Shown one piece after another: positions 418 through 11,835 of a stretch of 64,000 nt of DNA. The notes under the pieces were generated by a model that was not told where the DNA came from, did no database searches, and saw nothing but the letters and a program-made list of their open reading frames with translations. The stretch's first letter is position 1. Each line of letters begins with the position of its first letter. The translations under genes and the position numbers were made by a program. The stretch comes from Dehalococcoidia bacterium. GTDB taxonomy: Bacteria; Chloroflexota; Dehalococcoidia; Lucifugimonadales; JAGWBF01. Location of the stretch: positions 68,565 through 132,564 of the forward strand of contig DAOUJG010000053.1 in the NCBI GenBank assembly GCA_034423015.1, written 5' to 3'.

Positions 418-780
418 ATGGAGTGCGAGGAGCATGGCCGGACGGCAAGGCAGTTCCTGGCCGCATCCGACGAGGAGTTCGCCGCTGGAGACCACCTGCA
501 GGCCTCCGAGAAGCTATGGGGCGCAGCCTCCCACGCCGTCATGGCCGCGGCCGTGCTTCGGGACTGGCCCTGCCGGACCCACCGGGAGCTGAAGAACGCG
601 GTGGAGAGGCTGAGCGAGGAGAAGGCCGACGAGGGGTTCGCCGCTGGTTTCTACGCCGCGGAGAATTTCCACAAGAACTTCTACCACGACGAGATGGAAC
701 CCTACCAGATCGAGATCGATCGTCCCCGGGTGCATCGTTTCGTAGACCGGGTGCTGGCGACCCTGGCGCCGGACGACTAG
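418..780 (+). CDS. PaREP1/HEPN-like all-helical protein
   Basis: 120-aa ORF with a GGGAGG SD about 7 nt upstream. The segment FLAASDEEFAAGDHLQASEKLWGAASHAVMA resembles the PaREP1/HEPN-like helical family (SEKxWGA signature) as I recall it. I see no clear Rx4-6H motif. Confidence 0.55.
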   Translation: MECEEHGRTARQFLAASDEEFAAGDHLQASEKLWGAASHAVMAAAVLRDWPCRTHRELKNAVERLSEEKADEGFAAGFYAAENFHKNFYHDEMEPYQIEIDRPRVHRFVDRVLATLAPDD

Positions 781-3950: not shown

Positions 3951-4415
3951 CTAGCCCAGCTTGTCCAGCTCCGCCAGGATGTCCCTGGGATCGGGGAGGT
4001 TGGGGGGCGAGTACTCCTGCCTGAACCGGATGACCCCGCCCTTGTCCACGATTATGATGGCCCGGCGGCTGGCGCCCCGTTCCTCGTTCCACAGCCCGTA
4101 GGACTTGACCATCTCCCCGTGGGGATGGAAGTCGGAGAGGAGGGGGTAGGGTATGTTCCCAAGGCCCGTCGAGTAGGCGCGGTGGGAGTGTTGGCTGTCA
4201 CAGCTTATGCCCAGGACCTGGGCATCCTTCTCCTCGAACTGGCCGTTGTACTGCCGGAACGAGGAGACCTGGTTCGTTCACCCGCCTGTGAAGTCGAAGA
4301 CGTGGAAGGAGAGCACCACGTTCTTCTGGCCCCGGTACTGGCCCAGGGAAACGTCGTCTCCCAGGCTGGAGGGCATCGTGAAATCGGGAGCGGGCTGTCC
4401 CACCTCGGCTGCCAT
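3951..4415 (-). CDS. peroxiredoxin (AhpC/TSA/Bcp type) with in-frame UGA at the peroxidatic Cys position; selenocysteine candidate
   Basis: A single frame from ATG 4413-4415 to TAG 3951-3953 reads MAAEVGQPAPDFT...VVLSFHVFDFTGG-TGA(4278-4280)-TNQVSSFRQYNGQFEEKDAQVLGISCDS...IIIVDKGGVIRF...LDKLG. The TGA aligns with Cys of the FTGVCTDE motif in the adjacent paralog. Confidence 0.75.
4230..4266 (-). promoter_or_regulatory. candidate bacterial SECIS hairpin downstream of the UGA at 4278-4280
   Basis: On the mRNA, CUCCUCG...CGAGGAG forms a 7-bp stem starting 11 nt after the UGA. A short inner CCG/CGG pairing is possible and the apical region contains GU. Not folded computationally. Confidence 0.4.
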
Positions 4416-4456: not shown

Positions 4457-4933
4457 CTATCCTCCCAGGCCGCTCAGGGCCTGCCTGATCTCGTCGTAGT
4501 CGGGCTCCGCGGTGACCTGTGGGGCGACCCACTTGTACCGGACCACCCCGCCCTTGTCCACCACGAACACCGCCCGGTTGGCCGCCGTGTACCCCTCCAT
4601 CCCGGCCAGGTTGGGGAGGGCGACCCCGTACTGGTTCACCACCTGGCGGGTGAAGTCGCTCAGCAGGGGGAAGTTGAGGTTGTTGGCGTCGGACCACGCC
4701 TTCTGGGCGAAGGGCGGGTCTACGCTTATGCCCAGCACCTGGGCGTTCAGGGAGTTGAACTGGTCGGCCCGGTCCCGCAGGGCGCACATCTCGTCGGTGC
4801 AGACCCCGGTGAAGGCGCCGGGAAAGAAGGCGAGGACCACGTTCTGCCCGTGGAGGTCGCCCAGGCTCCTGCTCTTCAGGTCGGTGCCGTGGAGGGTGAA
4901 GTCCGGGGCCGCCTGGCCGACGTCGACAGACAT
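4457..4933 (-). CDS. peroxiredoxin (AhpC/TSA/Bcp type, Cys form)
   Basis: 158 aa. It has the PxxxTxxC-type motif [12 protein letters not shown] and [12 protein letters not shown]. Confidence 0.9.
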
Positions 4934-5108
4934 GGAATAACTCCCCTTTCCAGCTACGTTGGACTCTCTACCGGCCCGTCCGGGCGTGGGGCGGCTACAT
5001 TATAGCGCATAGACGGCTGGCATACCACCGAGGGGCCCCCGGCGACGGCCCCAACGACGGTCGCCCGCTGACAATCCGCGGTCGCCCTCTCCGTCTGGAT
5101 TTGATAAG

Positions 5109-5831
5109 ATGCTCTACATGGAGATAGGAGAGGCGCAGTTGCAGGAATTACAGACCGCAGCTCGAGAACTCGGAGATAAGTTGTCCTCTGAACGTCCGAT
5201 ATTTGTTGAGTTCGCAGGCACTCCCAAGAGTGGGAAGAGCACCTGTATTGACACCGTCAACCATTTCTTCCGACGGCTGGACTATAAGGTGTTGGCGCCC
5301 ACGGAAGGTGCTTCCAAGCGAACGCCGTACTATCTCAAGGATGATTTCGTCGCATTCAATACTTGGTCAGCGGCCTACGCGTTGACTCACATCTTGGAGG
5401 GCCGCTTTGGGTCTGACCAATACCAGTTGGTCATCATGGACCGGGGACTCTTCGATGCCCTTGCCTGGTTTGAACTCCTGCGGGCTAAAGGCGACGTCAC
5501 GGAAGAAGACTGCACCGTCATTCAGAGCTTCCTGCTGGTTGGTCATTGGCGACAGCTAGTCGATGCGGTTTTCTTGTTCAAGACCGACCCGGCCACGTCG
5601 CTGGTGCGTGAGAACAGCAACAAGCTAATAGAAGAACCAGGTCGAGCCATGAACCCTGAGTTCCTTCGAGACCTGAACGACGCTTATCAATCCATCAGTT
5701 CGAAATACTCCGCGCAGTTCAGGTCCGTTTACGAGGTGGACACCGCCGGTGCCCAAGACACCACACCTCAGTCGACGGCCTTTGAGGTCGTCAAGAGAAT
5801 CGTCGACCACATTCGAAGCAGGGTAGCGTAA
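5109..5831 (+). CDS. P-loop NTPase, deoxynucleoside/NMP-kinase-like
   Basis: Walker A GTPKSGKST. VIMDRGLFDALAW resembles the DR/ERS motif of the dNK/NMP-kinase fold. A sampled line is about 48% GC, clearly below the flanks. Confidence 0.6.
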   Translation: MLYMEIGEAQLQELQTAARELGDKLSSERPIFVEFAGTPKSGKSTCIDTVNHFFRRLDYKVLAPTEGASKRTPYYLKDDFVAFNTWSAAYALTHILEGRFGSDQYQLVIMDRGLFDALAWFELLRAKGDVTEEDCTVIQSFLLVGHWRQLVDAVFLFKTDPATSLVRENSNKLIEEPGRAMNPEFLRDLNDAYQSISSKYSAQFRSVYEVDTAGAQDTTPQSTAFEVVKRIVDHIRSRVA

Positions 5832-5836
5832 TCAAT

Positions 5837-6475
5837 ATGCCCGCCAACCAAGTTCTTGTGTTCCCTCGGGCGATTTTCGGGGACGTTTTCTCGCTTTTGC
5901 CGTGGGACTCGATTCAGGAACAGATCGAGGAGATCGAAAGCACCTTTTCGTGGCTGCATCGGCCGGATGCGGAGCTGTCGCTCCATCTGGTCCAGGCAAT
6001 TCCGTGCGGATTCATTCGAGACCACGAAGGCCGGTACTGTGTGCTCAGGCGCGTGGAAAACTCCCGAAACGACCTCAACAGGAAGTTGAGCCTGGTTGTG
6101 GGGGGGCATATCGACAAGCCGCACAAGGACAGGTCGTTTCGGGCCACCATGTCGTTGAATCTCATGCGGGAGTTGGACGAGGAGGTTGGAATTCGCCCCG
6201 AGGAGCCCCCCAGTCCCGTCGGTGTAATTATCGACGATTCATCCATACAAGCTTCCCGGCACGTGGCGTTTCTGCATGAGATAACATCCGAGCAAGTCTT
6301 GCCAAGGGCGCCGGAAGAGTTTGCGGTGAGGTCGAAATACTCAGGCACGTTCATGCCTGCAGCCCGGATCGCTGAGATGTCCCACGGGTTCGACCCGTGG
6401 TCGAGACTGCTAATCGAGGAGTATGTCTGCCGGGGGGATGTCCGCCCGCAAGCCCGGCAGCGTTCGTTGTTCTGA
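5837..6475 (+). CDS. Nudix hydrolase
   Basis: Nudix box GGHIDKPHKDRSFRATMSLNLMRELDEEVGI (REx2EExGU core). The gene starts 5 nt after the kinase-like gene stop and shares its low GC. Confidence 0.7.
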   Translation: MPANQVLVFPRAIFGDVFSLLPWDSIQEQIEEIESTFSWLHRPDAELSLHLVQAIPCGFIRDHEGRYCVLRRVENSRNDLNRKLSLVVGGHIDKPHKDRSFRATMSLNLMRELDEEVGIRPEEPPSPVGVIIDDSSIQASRHVAFLHEITSEQVLPRAPEEFAVRSKYSGTFMPAARIAEMSHGFDPWSRLLIEEYVCRGDVRPQARQRSLF

Positions 6476-6507
6476 TTCACCCAGCGCCAGTCATTCTCCA
6501 ACAGCCG

Positions 6508-7653
6508 GTGGACACCCTCGAGAAAAAGGTAAAGCAATGTGCCCGGGAGCTGGGCTTCGACCTGGTGGGAATCGCCTCGGCAGAGGCCTTCTCGGAGCAT
6601 CAGGCCGTCACCCTGGAGCGTATACGCCAGGGGCTGATGGACGGGCTTCCCTGGTTCACCGAGGCCCGGGTGCGGCGCGGCTGCGACCCCCAGGCGCTGC
6701 TGCCGGGAGCCAGGTCCATCGTCACGGTGGGCATGAGCTACCACAGCCCCGACGGGGAGCCCCGGGACGGCGCCCCCGCGGGCAGGGTGGCCCGTTATGC
6801 CTGGGGGGACGACTACCACAAGGTCATCAAGCAGAGGCTCCGCGAGCTGGCCCGGCGGCTGTCCGATGGCCTGGGCAGGGAGTTGGCCGCCCGGTGGTAC
6901 GTGGACGACGGGCCGATGCTGGACCGGGCCGCCGCGGAGCGCGGGGGCATCGGCTGGTTCGGCAAGAACACCAACGTGCTGACCCGCTCCCACGGCTCCT
7001 GGGTGTTCCTCGGCCAGCTCGTCACGGACCTGGAGCTGGAGCCCGACCCTCCCCTAAAGAAGACGTGCGGAAGCTGCGTCCGGTGCATAGACGCCTGTCC
7101 CACCGGGGCCATCGTCGCGCCATACGTCATCGACAACGCCCGCTGCATCTCCCACCTGACCATCGAGAACCGCGGGCCCATTCCCCGGGAGTACCGCCCG
7201 TTGATGTACGACTGGGTCTTCGGCTGCGACATCTGCCAGGACGTGTGCCCCGTCAATCTGAAGGCCGCGTACACCAGGGAGCAGGCATTCCAAAAGCGGC
7301 GGTTCACCTCGCCGGACCTGATAGGCCTCCTCCGGATGAGCGACGAGGACTTCCGGGAGCGGTTTAGGAACAGCCCGGCCAGGCGGGCCAAGCGGTCGGG
7401 ACTTCGACGCAACGCCTGCGTGGCCCTGGGCAACGCCGGGGACCCAGGCGCCGTGCCGGCGTTGGTGGAGGCGCTGGAGGACGACGAGCCCCTGGTCAGG
7501 GGACACGCGGCCTGGGCCCTGGGCCGGCTGGGAGGCGCCGCCGCCGAGCACGGCCTGGAAGCCGCCCTTGGGAGCGAGGAGGACCCCGACGTGGTCGAGG
7601 AGATGGAGCTCGCCCTGGGCGAGGCCCGGGCCTGGAGGGCCGGGGCCTCCTAG
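6508..7653 (+). CDS. queG: epoxyqueuosine reductase
   Basis: GTG 6508 chosen, because the track ORF starting at 6397 overlaps the Nudix gene. Two ferredoxin-type motifs (CGSCVRCIDACP and CDICQDVCP) and a HEAT-like C-terminus (VRGHAAWALGRLG) are present. Confidence 0.9.
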   Translation: MDTLEKKVKQCARELGFDLVGIASAEAFSEHQAVTLERIRQGLMDGLPWFTEARVRRGCDPQALLPGARSIVTVGMSYHSPDGEPRDGAPAGRVARYAWGDDYHKVIKQRLRELARRLSDGLGRELAARWYVDDGPMLDRAAAERGGIGWFGKNTNVLTRSHGSWVFLGQLVTDLELEPDPPLKKTCGSCVRCIDACPTGAIVAPYVIDNARCISHLTIENRGPIPREYRPLMYDWVFGCDICQDVCPVNLKAAYTREQAFQKRRFTSPDLIGLLRMSDEDFRERFRNSPARRAKRSGLRRNACVALGNAGDPGAVPALVEALEDDEPLVRGHAAWALGRLGGAAAEHGLEAALGSEEDPDVVEEMELALGEARAWRAGAS

Positions 7654-8156
7654 GAGCGCCGCCGGCGGCCGCGGCCGGACGAGGGGGGCTTCTCGGGGCC
7701 CCTGGGCCGCTCTCCCCGCAACCGTCGCATCTCGTCTTCGACCAGGCCGAAGTCCCTCTTGGGCAGAAGGTGCAGGTTGGTCTGGGCGAACGCGATGTAC
7801 CAGTCCTCGGGGGCCCACCTGCGGACGTAGTCGAGCCTGGGAGCAAGCTGCCGGGCGTCGATGTACTGCTCCTCGTCAAGCACGATCTCCGGCTTGATGC
7901 GGACCCCGTAGGCCCACGCGCTCTTGCCCTCTTTGGCCCACTTGTGAGTCCCGTCCTCGAAGTATCGCGATGTGGCCGTGGCCGTGGCCGGGAAGTAGCG
8001 GTCCCTTCCCACGTAGTACAGTATCCGGTCCTCGGGCTCGATGCGCTGCGCCTTGCGGTGATACTGGGCCTTCAACCCCTGGACTGTAAACCCCAACTCT
8101 CTGATTATCCGGAAATTCTCCGGGCTGATGACCATCATCCAGTAGTTCCTGGGCAT
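7650..8156 (-). CDS. EVE/PUA-like domain protein
   Basis: ATG 8154-8156. MPRNYWMMVISPENFRIIRELG...RILYYV is typical of EVE/ASCH-like PUA-fold proteins as I recall them. The C-terminal tail is basic. Confidence 0.6.
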   Translation of the reverse strand: MPRNYWMMVISPENFRIIRELGFTVQGLKAQYHRKAQRIEPEDRILYYVGRDRYFPATATATSRYFEDGTHKWAKEGKSAWAYGVRIKPEIVLDEEQYIDARQLAPRLDYVRRWAPEDWYIAFAQTNLHLLPKRDFGLVEDEMRRLRGERPRGPEKPPSSGRGRRRRS

Positions 8157-8267
8157 CTGTTCCCCTGTTCTGTAGAAGAGGCTCCTTCTGTGAGTAATGG
8201 GTCCACTCCATTTTACCATATCGCTTCGCCTCGGGGACGCCGGACGGGGCGCCGGGCACTTGACTAA

Positions 8268-8296
8268 TTGTAGGCTATCGCTGCACATGCTATAAT
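8268..8296 (+). promoter_or_regulatory. sigma70-type promoter of metH
   Basis: TTGTAG, 17 nt, then TATAAT (8291-8296), followed by GGG. The ATG lies 30 nt downstream. Confidence 0.5.
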
Positions 8297-8325
8297 GGGT
8301 CGACCCTCGCCGCGGGCAAGACTGC

Positions 8326-11300
8326 ATGAACGAGAACGAACGCATCGACTCCCTCAAGTCCCTTCTGCAACGGCGAATACTGGTGCTGGACGGCGCCATG
8401 GGGACGTCCATCCAGGCCCTGGACCTGGGGCCGGAGGACTTCGGCGGAGCGGAGTACGAGGGGTGCAACGAGTACCTGGTCGTAACCCGGCCAGACGCCA
8501 TCTTAGGCATACACCGGAGCTACCTGGACGCCGGATGCGACATCCTGGAGACCAACACCTTCGGCGCCACGCCCCTGGTGCTGGCCGAGTACGGCCTGGC
8601 CCACGAGGCCCGGCGCATCAACCGGGAGGCCGCGGCCCTGGCGCGGCAGGCGGCGGACGAAGTCGCCACTGCCGACAGGCCGCGTTTCGTCGCCGGGTCC
8701 ATGGGCCCCACCACCAAGACAATCTCGGTGACCGGCGGCGTGACCTTCGACGAGCTGGCTGACTCGTTCCACGAGCAGGCGCTGGGCCTGTTGGAGGGGG
8801 GCGCCGACCTGCTCCTCCTGGAGACTGGCCAGGACACCCTGAACATCAAGGCCGGCCTGGAGGGCATCGACCACGCCTTCCAGGAGCTTGGGAGAGAGCT
8901 CCCGGTGGCGGTGCAGGGGACCGTGGAGCCCATGGGCACCCTGCTGGCGGGACAGGACGTGGAGGCGCTCTACACGTCCCTCGCCCACCGGGACCTGCTG
9001 TGGATAGGGCTGAACTGCGCCACCGGGCCGACCTTCATGACCGACCACGTCCGCACCCTGGCGGCCCTGTCCCGGTTCCCGGTAGCGTGCCTGCCCAACG
9101 CAGGCCTGCCCGACGAGTTCGGCAAGTACAACGAGACGCCGGAGATGATGGCGCACACCCTGGGCCTCTTCATCGCCTCCGGCTGGGTCAACCTCATCGG
9201 CGGGTGCTGCGGCACGACGCCGGAGCACATACGCCTGCTGGTCGAGGCCGCCGAGGGCGCCCCCGGCAGGCCCCTCGCCGCCGGGCGGGATACACGGGTG
9301 TCGGGCATCGAGACGGTGGTGGTGGACGAGGACGTCCGGCCCGCCATCGTCGGAGAGCGCACCAACGTCCTGGGGAGCCGCCGCTTCCGCCGCCTCATAA
9401 ACCAGGGCAGCTTCGAGGAGGCCGCCGAGGTGGGACGCCGTCAGGTGCGAAACGGCGCCCACGTGCTGGACGTGTGCCTCCAGGACCCAGACCGGGACGA
9501 GGTGGCCGACGTGACCACCTTCCTGGATGTGCTCAACAAGAAGGTCAAGGCGCCGGTCATGATCGACTCCACCGACGCCCAGGTGATCCACGAGGCCTTG
9601 AAGCGGCTCCAGGGCAAGTCCATCATCAACTCTGTCAACCTGGAGGACGGCGAGGAGCGGTTCCAGGCGGTTGTCCCGCTGGCCCGGCGGTACGGTGCGG
9701 CCCTGGTCGTGGGCTGCATCGACGACGACAAGGAGCAGGCCCAGGCCGTCACCCGGCAGCGCAAGCTGGACGTGGCCCTCAGGTCCTACGACCTCCTGAC
9801 CGGGAAGTATGGCGTGGCCCCCGAGGACCTGATCTTCGACCCGTTGGTGTTCCCGGCGGGGACGGGGGACGAGAACTACGTTGGGTCGGGAGAGGAGACC
9901 ATCGAGGGGGTACGGCTCATCAGGCAGGCGCTGCCCCGCTGCAAGACCGTCCTTGGCATTTCCAACGTCTCCTTCGGACTGCCCCCCTCGGGCCGGGAGG
10001 TGCTCAACTCGGTGTTCCTGTACCACTGCGTCCAGGCCGGCCTGGACATGGCCATCGTCAACTCGGAGTTGATGCAGCGGTACACGTCCATCCCGGAGGA
10101 GGAGCGGAGGCTGGCCGAGGACCTGATCTGGAACCGGGGCGAAGACCCGGTGGCCGCCTTCGCGGCCCACTTCAGGGACCGGCCGCCCAAGTCGACCACC
10201 GAGGAGCGGCGTAGCCTGCCCCTGGACGAGCGGTTGGCCATGGCCATCATCGAGGGGTCCAAGGAGGGGCTGGCCGAGGACCTGGACGAGGCCATGGCCG
10301 GGCGGACCCCGCTGGAGATAATCAACGGTCCGCTGATGGCGGGGATGGACGAGGTGGGGCGACAGTTCAACGCCAACCAGCTCATCGTGGCTGAGGTGCT
10401 CCAGTCGGCGGAGTCCATGAAGTTCGCGGTGGCCCACCTGGAGCCCCACATGGAGCGGGTGGACTCGGCCACCCGGGGCAAGGTGGTGCTGGCCACGGTG
10501 AAGGGCGACGTCCACGACATAGGCAAAAACCTGGTGGAGATCATCATCTCCAACAACGGTTACCAGGTGATAAACCTGGGGATCAAGGTGCCGCCCCAGG
10601 ACCTGATCGAGGCCTACCGGGAGCATAACCCGGACATCATCGGGCTGTCGGGCCTGCTGGTGAAGTCCGCCCAGATGATGGTGGAGACGGTGCGGGACTT
10701 TCGCCAGGCGGGCGTGAGTGCGCCGGTGCTGGTGGGTGGCGCCGCCCTCTCCAACCGGTTCACCCGGCTGCGCATCGCGCCGGAGTACGACGGGCTGGTG
10801 GCCTACGCCTCCGACGCCATGACGGGCCTGGCTCTGGCCAACACCATCCAGGAGGCCGACGAGCGGGAGCGGCTGGCGGCGTCGCTGACGGCCGAGTCCC
10901 GGGACCTCCTGGAGAGCGAGGAACGACGCCGGCAGGCGGAGCCGGCCGCCGGCGCGCTGCCCCCCAAGGCGGCCCAGGTCAGGCACGACTTCCCCATCCC
11001 CAACCCGCCCGACCTGCTCCTGCACGTCATACGGGACCACGACCTGCAGGAGATATTCCCGTATATCAACCCCCAGATGCTGTACGCCCGCCACCTGGGC
11101 TTCAAGGGACGGTTTGCCGATGCCCTGTCCCAGGGGGACCCGGCGGCGGTGGAGCTGCGGGAGTCGGTGCGGCGGATAGAGGACGAGGTTCTGGCCCGGG
11201 ACGACATCAACGCCGGCGCCGTCTTCAAGTTCTTCCCCTGCCGCTCCGATGGCCGGCAGGTGCTGGTGTACGCCCCCGACGGGGCGACGGTCCTGGAGCG

Positions 11301-11835
11301 GTTCCGCTTCGGCCGCCAGTCCCGGGGGGACGGGCTGTGCCTGGCCGACTACCTGCTACCCGGGGACTCTGGGGAGGTCGACTACCTGGCCATGTTCGTA
11401 ACCACCGTGGGACCGGGGGTCCGCGACCTGGCCGAGGCGTGGAAGCAGGAGGGGCGCTACCTGGACTCCCACGTCCTCCAGGCGCTGGCCCTGGAGAGCG
11501 CCGAGGCGTTCGCGGAGCTGCTGCACCAGCGCATTCGCCGCATGTGGGGGTTTGGCGACCCCGAGGGCACCACCTACGTGGACCTGTTCCGGACCCGGTA
11601 CCGGGGCCGCCGCTACTCCTTCGGCTATCCCGCCTGCCCCAGGCTGGAGGACCAGGCCCAGCTCTTTCGCTTGCTGGGAGCCACGGCCGAGCTCGGGGTG
11701 GAGCTGACCGAGGAGTTCATGATGGACCCCGAGTCATCGGTCTCGGCGCTGGTCTTCCATCACCCCGACGCCAAGTACTTCAACCTGGACGAGGCGGACA
11801 TCCAGCGGCTGGAGGCCGAGACAGGGGCCGGCTAG
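8326..11835 (+). CDS. metH: cobalamin-dependent methionine synthase
   Basis: 1169 aa. Hcy-binding, pterin-binding, B12-binding (ATVKGDVHDIGKN) and AdoMet-activation domains follow one another colinearly. Confidence 0.95.
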   Translation: MNENERIDSLKSLLQRRILVLDGAMGTSIQALDLGPEDFGGAEYEGCNEYLVVTRPDAILGIHRSYLDAGCDILETNTFGATPLVLAEYGLAHEARRINREAAALARQAADEVATADRPRFVAGSMGPTTKTISVTGGVTFDELADSFHEQALGLLEGGADLLLLETGQDTLNIKAGLEGIDHAFQELGRELPVAVQGTVEPMGTLLAGQDVEALYTSLAHRDLLWIGLNCATGPTFMTDHVRTLAALSRFPVACLPNAGLPDEFGKYNETPEMMAHTLGLFIASGWVNLIGGCCGTTPEHIRLLVEAAEGAPGRPLAAGRDTRVSGIETVVVDEDVRPAIVGERTNVLGSRRFRRLINQGSFEEAAEVGRRQVRNGAHVLDVCLQDPDRDEVADVTTFLDVLNKKVKAPVMIDSTDAQVIHEALKRLQGKSIINSVNLEDGEERFQAVVPLARRYGAALVVGCIDDDKEQAQAVTRQRKLDVALRSYDLLTGKYGVAPEDLIFDPLVFPAGTGDENYVGSGEETIEGVRLIRQALPRCKTVLGISNVSFGLPPSGREVLNSVFLYHCVQAGLDMAIVNSELMQRYTSIPEEERRLAEDLIWNRGEDPVAAFAAHFRDRPPKSTTEERRSLPLDERLAMAIIEGSKEGLAEDLDEAMAGRTPLEIINGPLMAGMDEVGRQFNANQLIVAEVLQSAESMKFAVAHLEPHMERVDSATRGKVVLATVKGDVHDIGKNLVEIIISNNGYQVINLGIKVPPQDLIEAYREHNPDIIGLSGLLVKSAQMMVETVRDFRQAGVSAPVLVGGAALSNRFTRLRIAPEYDGLVAYASDAMTGLALANTIQEADERERLAASLTAESRDLLESEERRRQAEPAAGALPPKAAQVRHDFPIPNPPDLLLHVIRDHDLQEIFPYINPQMLYARHLGFKGRFADALSQGDPAAVELRESVRRIEDEVLARDDINAGAVFKFFPCRSDGRQVLVYAPDGATVLERFRFGRQSRGDGLCLADYLLPGDSGEVDYLAMFVTTVGPGVRDLAEAWKQEGRYLDSHVLQALALESAEAFAELLHQRIRRMWGFGDPEGTTYVDLFRTRYRGRRYSFGYPACPRLEDQAQLFRLLGATAELGVELTEEFMMDPESSVSALVFHHPDAKYFNLDEADIQRLEAETGAG

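Follow-up and report, generated by a model that had tools for sequence, protein, structure and literature searches.

A low-GC gene pair from a Dehalococcoidia genome encodes the split form of a putative kinase–Nudix enzyme

A stretch of 64,000 nucleotides (nt) from the Dehalococcoidia contig DAOUJG010000053.1 (assembly GCA_034423015.1, positions 68,565 to 132,564), hereafter the window, carries between a peroxiredoxin gene and queG two co-oriented genes, which encode a predicted P-loop kinase and a predicted Nudix hydrolase. Their base composition departs sharply from that of the surrounding DNA, which raises the question of what this pair does and how it came to lie there. The initial annotation, made from the sequence alone, viewed the genes as a horizontally acquired island acting on one nucleotide pool, with anti-phage defence, nucleoside salvage and queuosine-precursor salvage as candidate roles. 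Our analysis indicates that the two genes are the separated halves of an enzyme that is encoded by a single gene in other bacteria, and that their unusual composition is common to the whole family.

Coupling and composition of the two genes

Each of the 15 Dehalococcoidia genome loci that a search with the kinase recovered has the Nudix gene directly after the kinase gene, and the pairing is also kept in distant homologues, whose Nudix proteins share 38-43% identity. The distance between the genes ranges over these loci from a 4-nt overlap to the 5-nt spacer present in the window. Pairwise divergences of the two proteins are strongly correlated over 18 loci (Mantel r = 0.94), and this value was reached in none of 5000 permutations. 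Only two Nudix genes without a kinase were found, both of them more divergent (34% and 42% identity) and located among small open reading frames (ORFs) of unknown function. Thus, the pair is conserved as a unit.

In other bacteria the two proteins are joined. Among the 150 top representatives of the family, 77 match both domain profiles, and 73 of these have at least 400 amino acids (aa). Most of the fused proteins are 430-480 aa long, with an N-terminal kinase and a C-terminal, complete YmaB-type Nudix domain including the N-terminal extension of the latter. By blastp, at least 89 sampled proteins, mostly from Phycisphaerae, contain both domains, the order always being kinase then Nudix, and the RE..EE motif is preserved in 87 of the 89; the named fusions are proteins of Phycisphaerae metagenome-assembled genomes and the AO1-C protein described below. 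Since the same two proteins are fused in the same order elsewhere, their sequences identify the genes of the window as the split form of a bifunctional kinase–Nudix enzyme. In the literature searched we found no description of a kinase and a Nudix protein coupled in this way, by operon or by fusion, and nothing on the family beyond one report (PMC5960316).

Several atypical members were also observed. The 663-aa protein P0325 (OJJ17260.1) from the marine bacterium AO1-C combines the kinase and the YmaB-type Nudix domain with a second, canonical Nudix domain, while the 426-aa protein P0258, which may be an assembly artefact, has DUF5131 ahead of a truncated kinase. Among the Nudix homologues P0238 (316 aa; locus L021, 5607-6951) is the most divergent, with about 100 extra residues at its N-terminus and no kinase. 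Its gene comes after a YAcAr (PF10686) gene, among small ORFs of one orientation that together resemble a phage or mobile element.

The island described in the initial annotation was reproduced in its ORFs, coordinates, spacer and deficit in guanine and cytosine (GC). Positions 5109-6475 have a GC content of 0.558, compared with 0.674 for the entire window, and represent the minimum of all 1367-nt windows, about 4.7 standard deviations (sd) below their mean (0.673, sd 0.025). The figure of 48% GC given earlier is correct for the two 60-nt lines at 5101-5220 but not for the island, which averages 56%. GC at third codon positions (GC3) is 0.66 in the kinase gene and 0.72 in the Nudix gene, whereas the adjacent genes reach 0.88-0.96 and the ORFs of the window have a median of 0.90. 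The codon-usage distances of the kinase (0.61, z = 6.8) and Nudix (0.54, z = 5.6) genes both fall outside the range of the 41 other window genes (mean 0.22, sd 0.06, maximum 0.35). The dip is therefore beyond normal variance within the window, and the composition of the island is foreign, well past chance. A second GC dip at 7800-8400 was considered as another island and rejected, the ORF there having a normal GC3 of 0.88 and the dip being an intergenic or out-of-frame effect.

The deficit extends to every locus of the family that was compared. In 21 of 21 loci, split and fused, from Chloroflexota and Planctomycetota, the module is the stretch of its locus with the lowest GC, at a mean deficit of 11 points (range 6.7-19.4). 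In one clade of six genomes, both the site of the pair and the genes on either side are shared, and there the GC3 of the pair is 0.58-0.66 versus 0.83-0.94 for the conserved neighbours, with four-fold sites diverged to about 50% identity. Because the low GC is family-wide and is also seen in a clade where the position is conserved, it does not point to a recent arrival; it is the mark of a gene with accessory behaviour wherever it is found. Possible causes are gene conversion with only a weak GC bias, recurrent replacement from a low-GC pool and selection for rare codons.

The kinase and Nudix families

Matches of the kinase to curated libraries were all below threshold, including AAA_28 (E = 0.009), Thymidylate_kin (E = 0.023, 14.8 bits against a cutoff of 27), TIGR00041 (E = 4e-4, 20.2 bits against a cutoff of 83.25) and the phage 'thymidylate kinase' PHROGs (about 5e-3). 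Pfam dNK (PF01712) did not match, and a kinase profile searched against PDB sequences returned P-loop noise only. The protein nevertheless has many relatives: a word-seeded search recovered 563 homologues, the best 120 of which share 57-98% identity, and a full hidden Markov model scan gave 1096 representatives at 50% identity. An AlphaFold model of the kinase (predicted local distance difference test, pLDDT, 88.6) was compared with PDB structures using Foldseek. The top matches were Drosophila deoxynucleoside kinase (dNK), Mycoplasma deoxyadenosine kinase (dAK), human deoxycytidine kinase (dCK), the nucleoside-antibiotic kinase AbmG and bacterial thymidylate kinases (TMPK), with E values of about 1e-6, template-modelling (TM) scores of 0.6-0.73 and 13-20% sequence identity. 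A search of the viral structure library BFVD likewise placed dNK, dAK, dCK and TMPK on top.

An alignment of 34 kinase members contains 63 invariant residues. These comprise the Walker A motif G37-x4-G42-K43-S44, the segment L62-A63-P64-x-E66-G67-A68-S69-x-R71-T72-P73 (APTEGASKRTP) with E66 and R71, the motif N84-x-W86-S87-A88, the stretch D111-R112-G113-x-F115-D116-A117-L118-x-W120-F121 (DRGLFDALAWF), and the lid residues R167-E168 and G178-x2-M181-N182 (EPGRAMN). Like Drosophila dNK, Mycoplasma mycoides dAK, human dCK and the TMPKs of Staphylococcus aureus and Thermus thermophilus, which have the same fold, the protein has a P-loop and an arginine lid, an acidic residue that follows strand 2 and, beyond strand 3, a DR(x) motif with an aromatic residue about 10 positions further on. 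It differs from them in its own invariant signature, in its low identity to them and in always having a Nudix partner. With the catalytic motifs (P-loop, DRx and lid) and the dNK/TMPK fold present, the kinase is apparently active, and it represents a new family of its own inside this fold. Its earlier description as a protein resembling deoxynucleoside or nucleoside monophosphate (NMP) kinases is borne out by fold and motifs, at scores that are sub-threshold in curated models.

The second protein belongs to the YmaB/TM1382 family of Nudix proteins, as judged from profile and model comparisons. A profile of 35 homologues matched Thermotoga maritima TM1382 (PDB 3E57, 'putative Nudix hydrolase') over residues 2-190 with E = 3e-13, and 3E57_B was also the best Foldseek match of the AlphaFold model (pLDDT 90.4; E = 4.6e-11, TM 0.70/0.81; next match 8e-7). 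Alignment with the nrdF-adjacent ortholog from Bacillus velezensis using hhalign gave Prob 98.6 and E = 6e-16 over 163 columns, and the PHROGs match was phrog_8902 (1e-14). The Pfam NUDIX model (PF00293) scored the window protein at 20.5 bits, with a cutoff of 21.1, and several close homologues carry a precomputed PF00293 match. The catalytic helix R111-E112-x2-E115-E116 is intact and invariant. It is separated from G90, in the motif G89-G90-H91, by a spacing of 20 residues instead of the canonical 13, an insertion typical of the YmaB/TM1382 family, and the glutamate of GX5E is not conserved. The N-terminal domain of about 50 residues is family-specific (W39, A45-E46, Q53-x-I55-P56). The RELDEEVGI motif and the N-terminal extension that had been noted as uncharacterised are both confirmed, the latter as a hallmark of this family.

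The similarity to YmaB and TM1382 covers the full-length profile, with an N-terminal RxxAE...QxIP motif, GGH, the RExxEE helix and a C-terminal (D)xWS motif. However, identity to these proteins is 17-29%, and they stand alone (YmaB after nrdF), whereas the present Nudix protein is coupled or fused to a dedicated kinase. Preliminary work is reported to have found deoxynucleoside triphosphate (dNTP) pyrophosphohydrolase activity in recombinant YmaB, which might supply dAMP to class Ib reductase, and the YmaB family has been described as not fully explored (PMC5960316). By tblastn, Firmicute phages and a Bacillus replicon were found to carry homologues of the window Nudix protein; in the replicon, a 205-aa gene occupies the YmaB position straight after nrdI-nrdE-nrdF. 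The homologue in phage SP-15 is annotated as similar to BSU17400, and the phage genes adjoin those for dUTPase, thioredoxin, guanylate kinase, 5'-nucleotidase, primase and helicase or replication proteins. Neither protein of the pair belongs to a well-characterised housekeeping family.

A 36-kb contig of JGI sample 3300050821, which encodes the protein P0232, carries a distant copy of the pair. There a MazG-like gene, two unknown genes, the 5'-deoxynucleotidase gene NT5C, the kinase and Nudix genes, a 133-aa ORF and a NERD gene lie in a row, in what looks like a small nucleotide-metabolism cluster.

Cassette borders, predicted promoter and mobility

The borders of the cassette were defined by comparison with its nearest relative, locus L001, which shows 77% DNA similarity over 1442 nt and is unrelated on both sides of this segment (Table 1). 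The 3' border lies 1 nt short of the start codon of queG, which the gene call on the source contig places at 6508 and not at 6397. In an alignment of seven upstream regions, the columns AT.TG.TA..AT and CATG are invariant. They correspond to an extended -10 element TGnTAnnAT (here TGn-TAAGAT, 5102-5110) and, 7 nt beyond it, to an invariant ATG at 5118. The upstream ATG at 5109 is within this promoter, and one relative lacks it. As the invariant -10 element precedes the invariant ATG and 5109 falls inside the promoter, the kinase probably starts at 5118 (237 aa) and not at 5109.

The cassette is therefore predicted to carry its own promoter, and its mRNA is probably leaderless or near-leaderless, because only 7 nt lie between the -10 element and the conserved start codon. 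In a consensus scan, promoter and terminator signals were not above chance. No terminator-like site was found between the cassette and queG, so that queG is likely read through from the cassette. The promoter region also contains a conserved CTGACA...GGTCGCC motif at 5068-5085. At 5058-5090, a short repeat CGGTCGCCC(G/T)CT, with copies 21 nt apart, flanks the conserved motif CTGACAATCCG upstream of the -10 element; five non-syntenic loci share this motif, which could act as an operator.

Table 1. Features of the cassette and its surroundings in the window
Feature	Position	Strand	Remarks
PaREP1-family gene (PF05942)	418-780	+	120 aa
AhpC/TSA fragment	~4278-4415	-	45 aa; coordinates converted from source-contig gene calls
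Peroxiredoxin gene	4457-4933		intact
Cassette-borne promoter region (predicted)	5066-5117	+	DNA homology with L001 from 5066, flanks unrelated
Kinase ORF	5109-5831	+	240 aa; GTPKSGKST, MDRGLFDALAWF
Nudix ORF	5837-6475	+	212 aa; RELDEEVGI
Cassette 3' tail	6476-6506	+	L001 homology runs 31 nt beyond the Nudix stop codon
queG	6508-7653	+	
ORF convergent with queG	7650-8138	-	162 aa
metH	8326-11835		
Predicted tRNA-Phe(GAA)	10113-10202	-	inside metH; probably a false positive

The flanking genes of the pair vary across genomes, the insertion sites in different Dehalococcoidia genomes are unrelated, and tblastn found the peroxiredoxin and queG genes at none of the other pair loci. The unrelated flanks and the sharp homology borders support the horizontal acquisition proposed in the initial annotation, which had relied on the contrast in composition. 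The window has no integrase or tRNA, and no direct repeat or target-site duplication bounds the cassette; the earlier inspection had likewise seen no direct repeats or integrase. Signs of mobility outside the window are modest: IS3-type transposases are found on both sides of the pair in locus L005 and as a fragment in L003, and a tRNA-Ser adjoins the pair in L003 and L004. In L005 (4005-10847) the pair and a 425-aa unknown ORF lie between two different IS3-type gene pairs (HTH_Tnp_1 and rve), and the two insertion sequence (IS) copies have no common DNA repeats of at least 40 nt. An empty-site allele was not found, as an exact peroxiredoxin look-up returned the source contig only and 80 metagenomic queG loci had neither the peroxiredoxin nor the pair upstream.

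Some neighbouring features of the window deserve a brief mention. The 'peroxiredoxin pair' of the initial annotation comprises one intact gene and an apparently truncated second copy, the AhpC/TSA fragment. The 162-aa ORF overlaps the end of queG by 4 nt and has no Pfam, PADLOC or significant PHROG match; the arrangement of queG with this convergent ORF recurs in 6 of the 80 metagenomic queG loci (51-63% identity). The N-terminal sequence of the ORF (NYWMMVISPENF) is reminiscent of PUA/EVE-like domains. The tRNA-Phe was called by ARAGORN, and the PaREP1-family gene, from a family better known from archaea, is followed by small unannotated ORFs.

Proposed function and alternative explanations

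We propose, with confidence evenly balanced for and against, that the module is an accessory, physically coupled deoxynucleotide kinase and pyrophosphohydrolase that sets, buffers or cleans one deoxynucleotide pool. It would work as a self-contained cassette with its own promoter and two translationally coupled genes. The first subunit would be an ATP-dependent kinase of the dNK/TMPK fold that phosphorylates a deoxynucleoside or a deoxynucleoside monophosphate (dNMP), and the second a YmaB/TM1382-type Nudix enzyme that splits the matching (d)NTP into (d)NMP and pyrophosphate, both probably in one complex acting on one nucleotide species. If the kinase uses a nucleoside, the two reactions would converge on the monophosphate, whereas with an NMP kinase the pair would form an ATP-driven substrate cycle. 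Deoxynucleotides are suggested by the company of the Nudix family, namely the Bacillus nrdI-nrdE-nrdF-ymaB arrangement, the phage nucleotide modules and the MazG-like/NT5C/kinase/Nudix locus, and by the preliminary activity reported for YmaB. The idea that both enzymes act on a shared nucleotide pool thus remains the most reasonable reading after this follow-up. Several observations weigh against it. The foreign composition in every genome examined and the unrelated insertion sites fit a housekeeping-type function poorly, and the weak AAA_28 matches, which are NadR ribosylnicotinamide-kinase-like, leave room for a substrate other than a deoxynucleotide. The sequence of the kinase does not show its acceptor (nucleoside or NMP, deoxy or ribo), and neither family has a published, definitive substrate, the activity of YmaB being cited as preliminary only.

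The same domain order invites comparison with antiviral nucleotide depletion. In DcdV (bioRxiv 10.1101/2021.03.31.437871) and the defensive dCTP deaminase (bioRxiv 10.1101/2021.04.26.441389), an N-terminal kinase domain is combined with a C-terminal deaminase domain, and both are essential. A P-loop kinase-like domain ahead of a deoxynucleotide-destroying domain, often in one polypeptide, follows the domain logic of AvcD/DcdV, as does the organization in a single gene or small accessory module, by analogy and not homology. In such an effector the kinase part would sense or gate while the Nudix part drains dNTPs to dNMPs on infection and starves the phage. The accessory behaviour of the module (unrelated sites, sharp borders, a promoter of its own, and IS elements or tRNA genes beside some loci) would suit this role, as would its persistently low GC, which is usual in fast-turnover accessory genes. 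However, the contextual support for an anti-phage module is absent. The catalytic partner is a Nudix protein and not a zinc deaminase (Pfam detected no deaminase domain), and PADLOC gave no significant match for either protein (best PtuA, E = 0.021). Housekeeping genes (SecA, GatB, tRNA synthetase, TrpA, DHODH, NADH dehydrogenase and similar) make up most of the 74 neighbours from 10 contexts, among which nine PADLOC models were matched once each and none repeatedly, with no enrichment or island of defence genes. The fused genes stand alone between topA and alaS, between icd and lipoate ligase, or beside a xanthine-dehydrogenase operon. The kinase was not found by tblastn in phage and plasmid collections, and IMG/VR scans with the kinase and Nudix alignments returned nothing. 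Its unusually high conservation and the inherited position in one clade also argue against an effector of this kind. A cassette-borne upstream RNA was not found either: the conserved upstream stretch is short, beginning just 52 nt ahead of the ATG, and a search of Rfam detected no RNA there, a comparison with the 5' antitoxin RNA of AvcD that is limited by AvcI-type RNAs not being conserved in sequence. We consider an anti-phage effector unlikely, and slightly more doubtful still the broader proposal that kinase–Nudix modules are an unrecognised family of nucleotide-depleting immune effectors acting by dNTP pyrophosphohydrolysis, with low GC as the footprint of defence turnover. If dNTP depletion were triggered in this way, it would add a new enzymatic route to nucleotide-starvation antiviral immunity.

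The remaining alternatives assign the pair other substrates. The P-loop kinase fold is common to toxins of the Zeta and AvrRxo1 type, and a tightly coupled, low-GC accessory module of two genes with its own promoter could be a toxin and antidote, in which the kinase makes a toxic phosphorylated nucleotide (UDP-N-acetylglucosamine-3'-phosphate, UNAG-3P, or 3'-NADP) and the Nudix protein hydrolyses it. This seems improbable, given that the best Foldseek matches are dNK and TMPK and not Zeta toxins, that Pfam Zeta_toxin is not significantly matched, that a stable toxin–antidote fusion in many lineages would be atypical, and that the Nudix family is tied to ribonucleotide reductase and dNTP genes. 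Salvage of nicotinamide adenine dinucleotide (NAD) or nicotinamide riboside by a NadR-type ribosylnicotinamide kinase and a Nudix hydrolase of NAD(H) or ADP-ribose is just as hard to credit. It draws on the weak AAA_28 matches (E = 0.009 to 4e-4) of the kinase and of its relatives in the fused proteins, and on a NadR-like viral protein that ranked 48th in the viral fold search. NadR, which joins an NMN adenylyltransferase to a ribosylnicotinamide kinase, and NadM-Nudix are precedents for a P-loop kinase or a Nudix domain in bifunctional nucleotide-cofactor fusions, but the pair has no adenylyltransferase domain. Every AAA_28 score is under the curated cutoff, dNK and TMPK lead the structural matches, the Nudix protein of the pair is of the YmaB/TM1382 type and from another clade than those of the NadM or ADP-ribose type, and NAD genes occur in none of the examined contexts. 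Queuosine-precursor salvage, suggested by the adjacency to queG in this window and the single nucleotide that separates the cassette end from its start codon, is refuted as a conserved association and can be given almost no credence. Neither the kinase nor the Nudix gene is present at any of the 80 metagenomic queG loci (40-71% identity), and no queG was detected by tblastn or gene calls, where checked, at the 20 other kinase–Nudix loci.

The fold of the kinase and the Nudix family are known. The kinase family, for which there is no curated model, is new, as its coupling to a Nudix protein appears to be, but nothing so far points to a new principle. No function is established for either partner, and their obligate pairing and fusion lead to a testable hypothesis, that they form one complex acting on one deoxynucleotide pool, for which the fused proteins offer a convenient single-polypeptide target for biochemistry. 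The deficit of about 11 GC points despite a conserved position makes this family a clean case for asking why some accessory genes never adopt the composition of their host.

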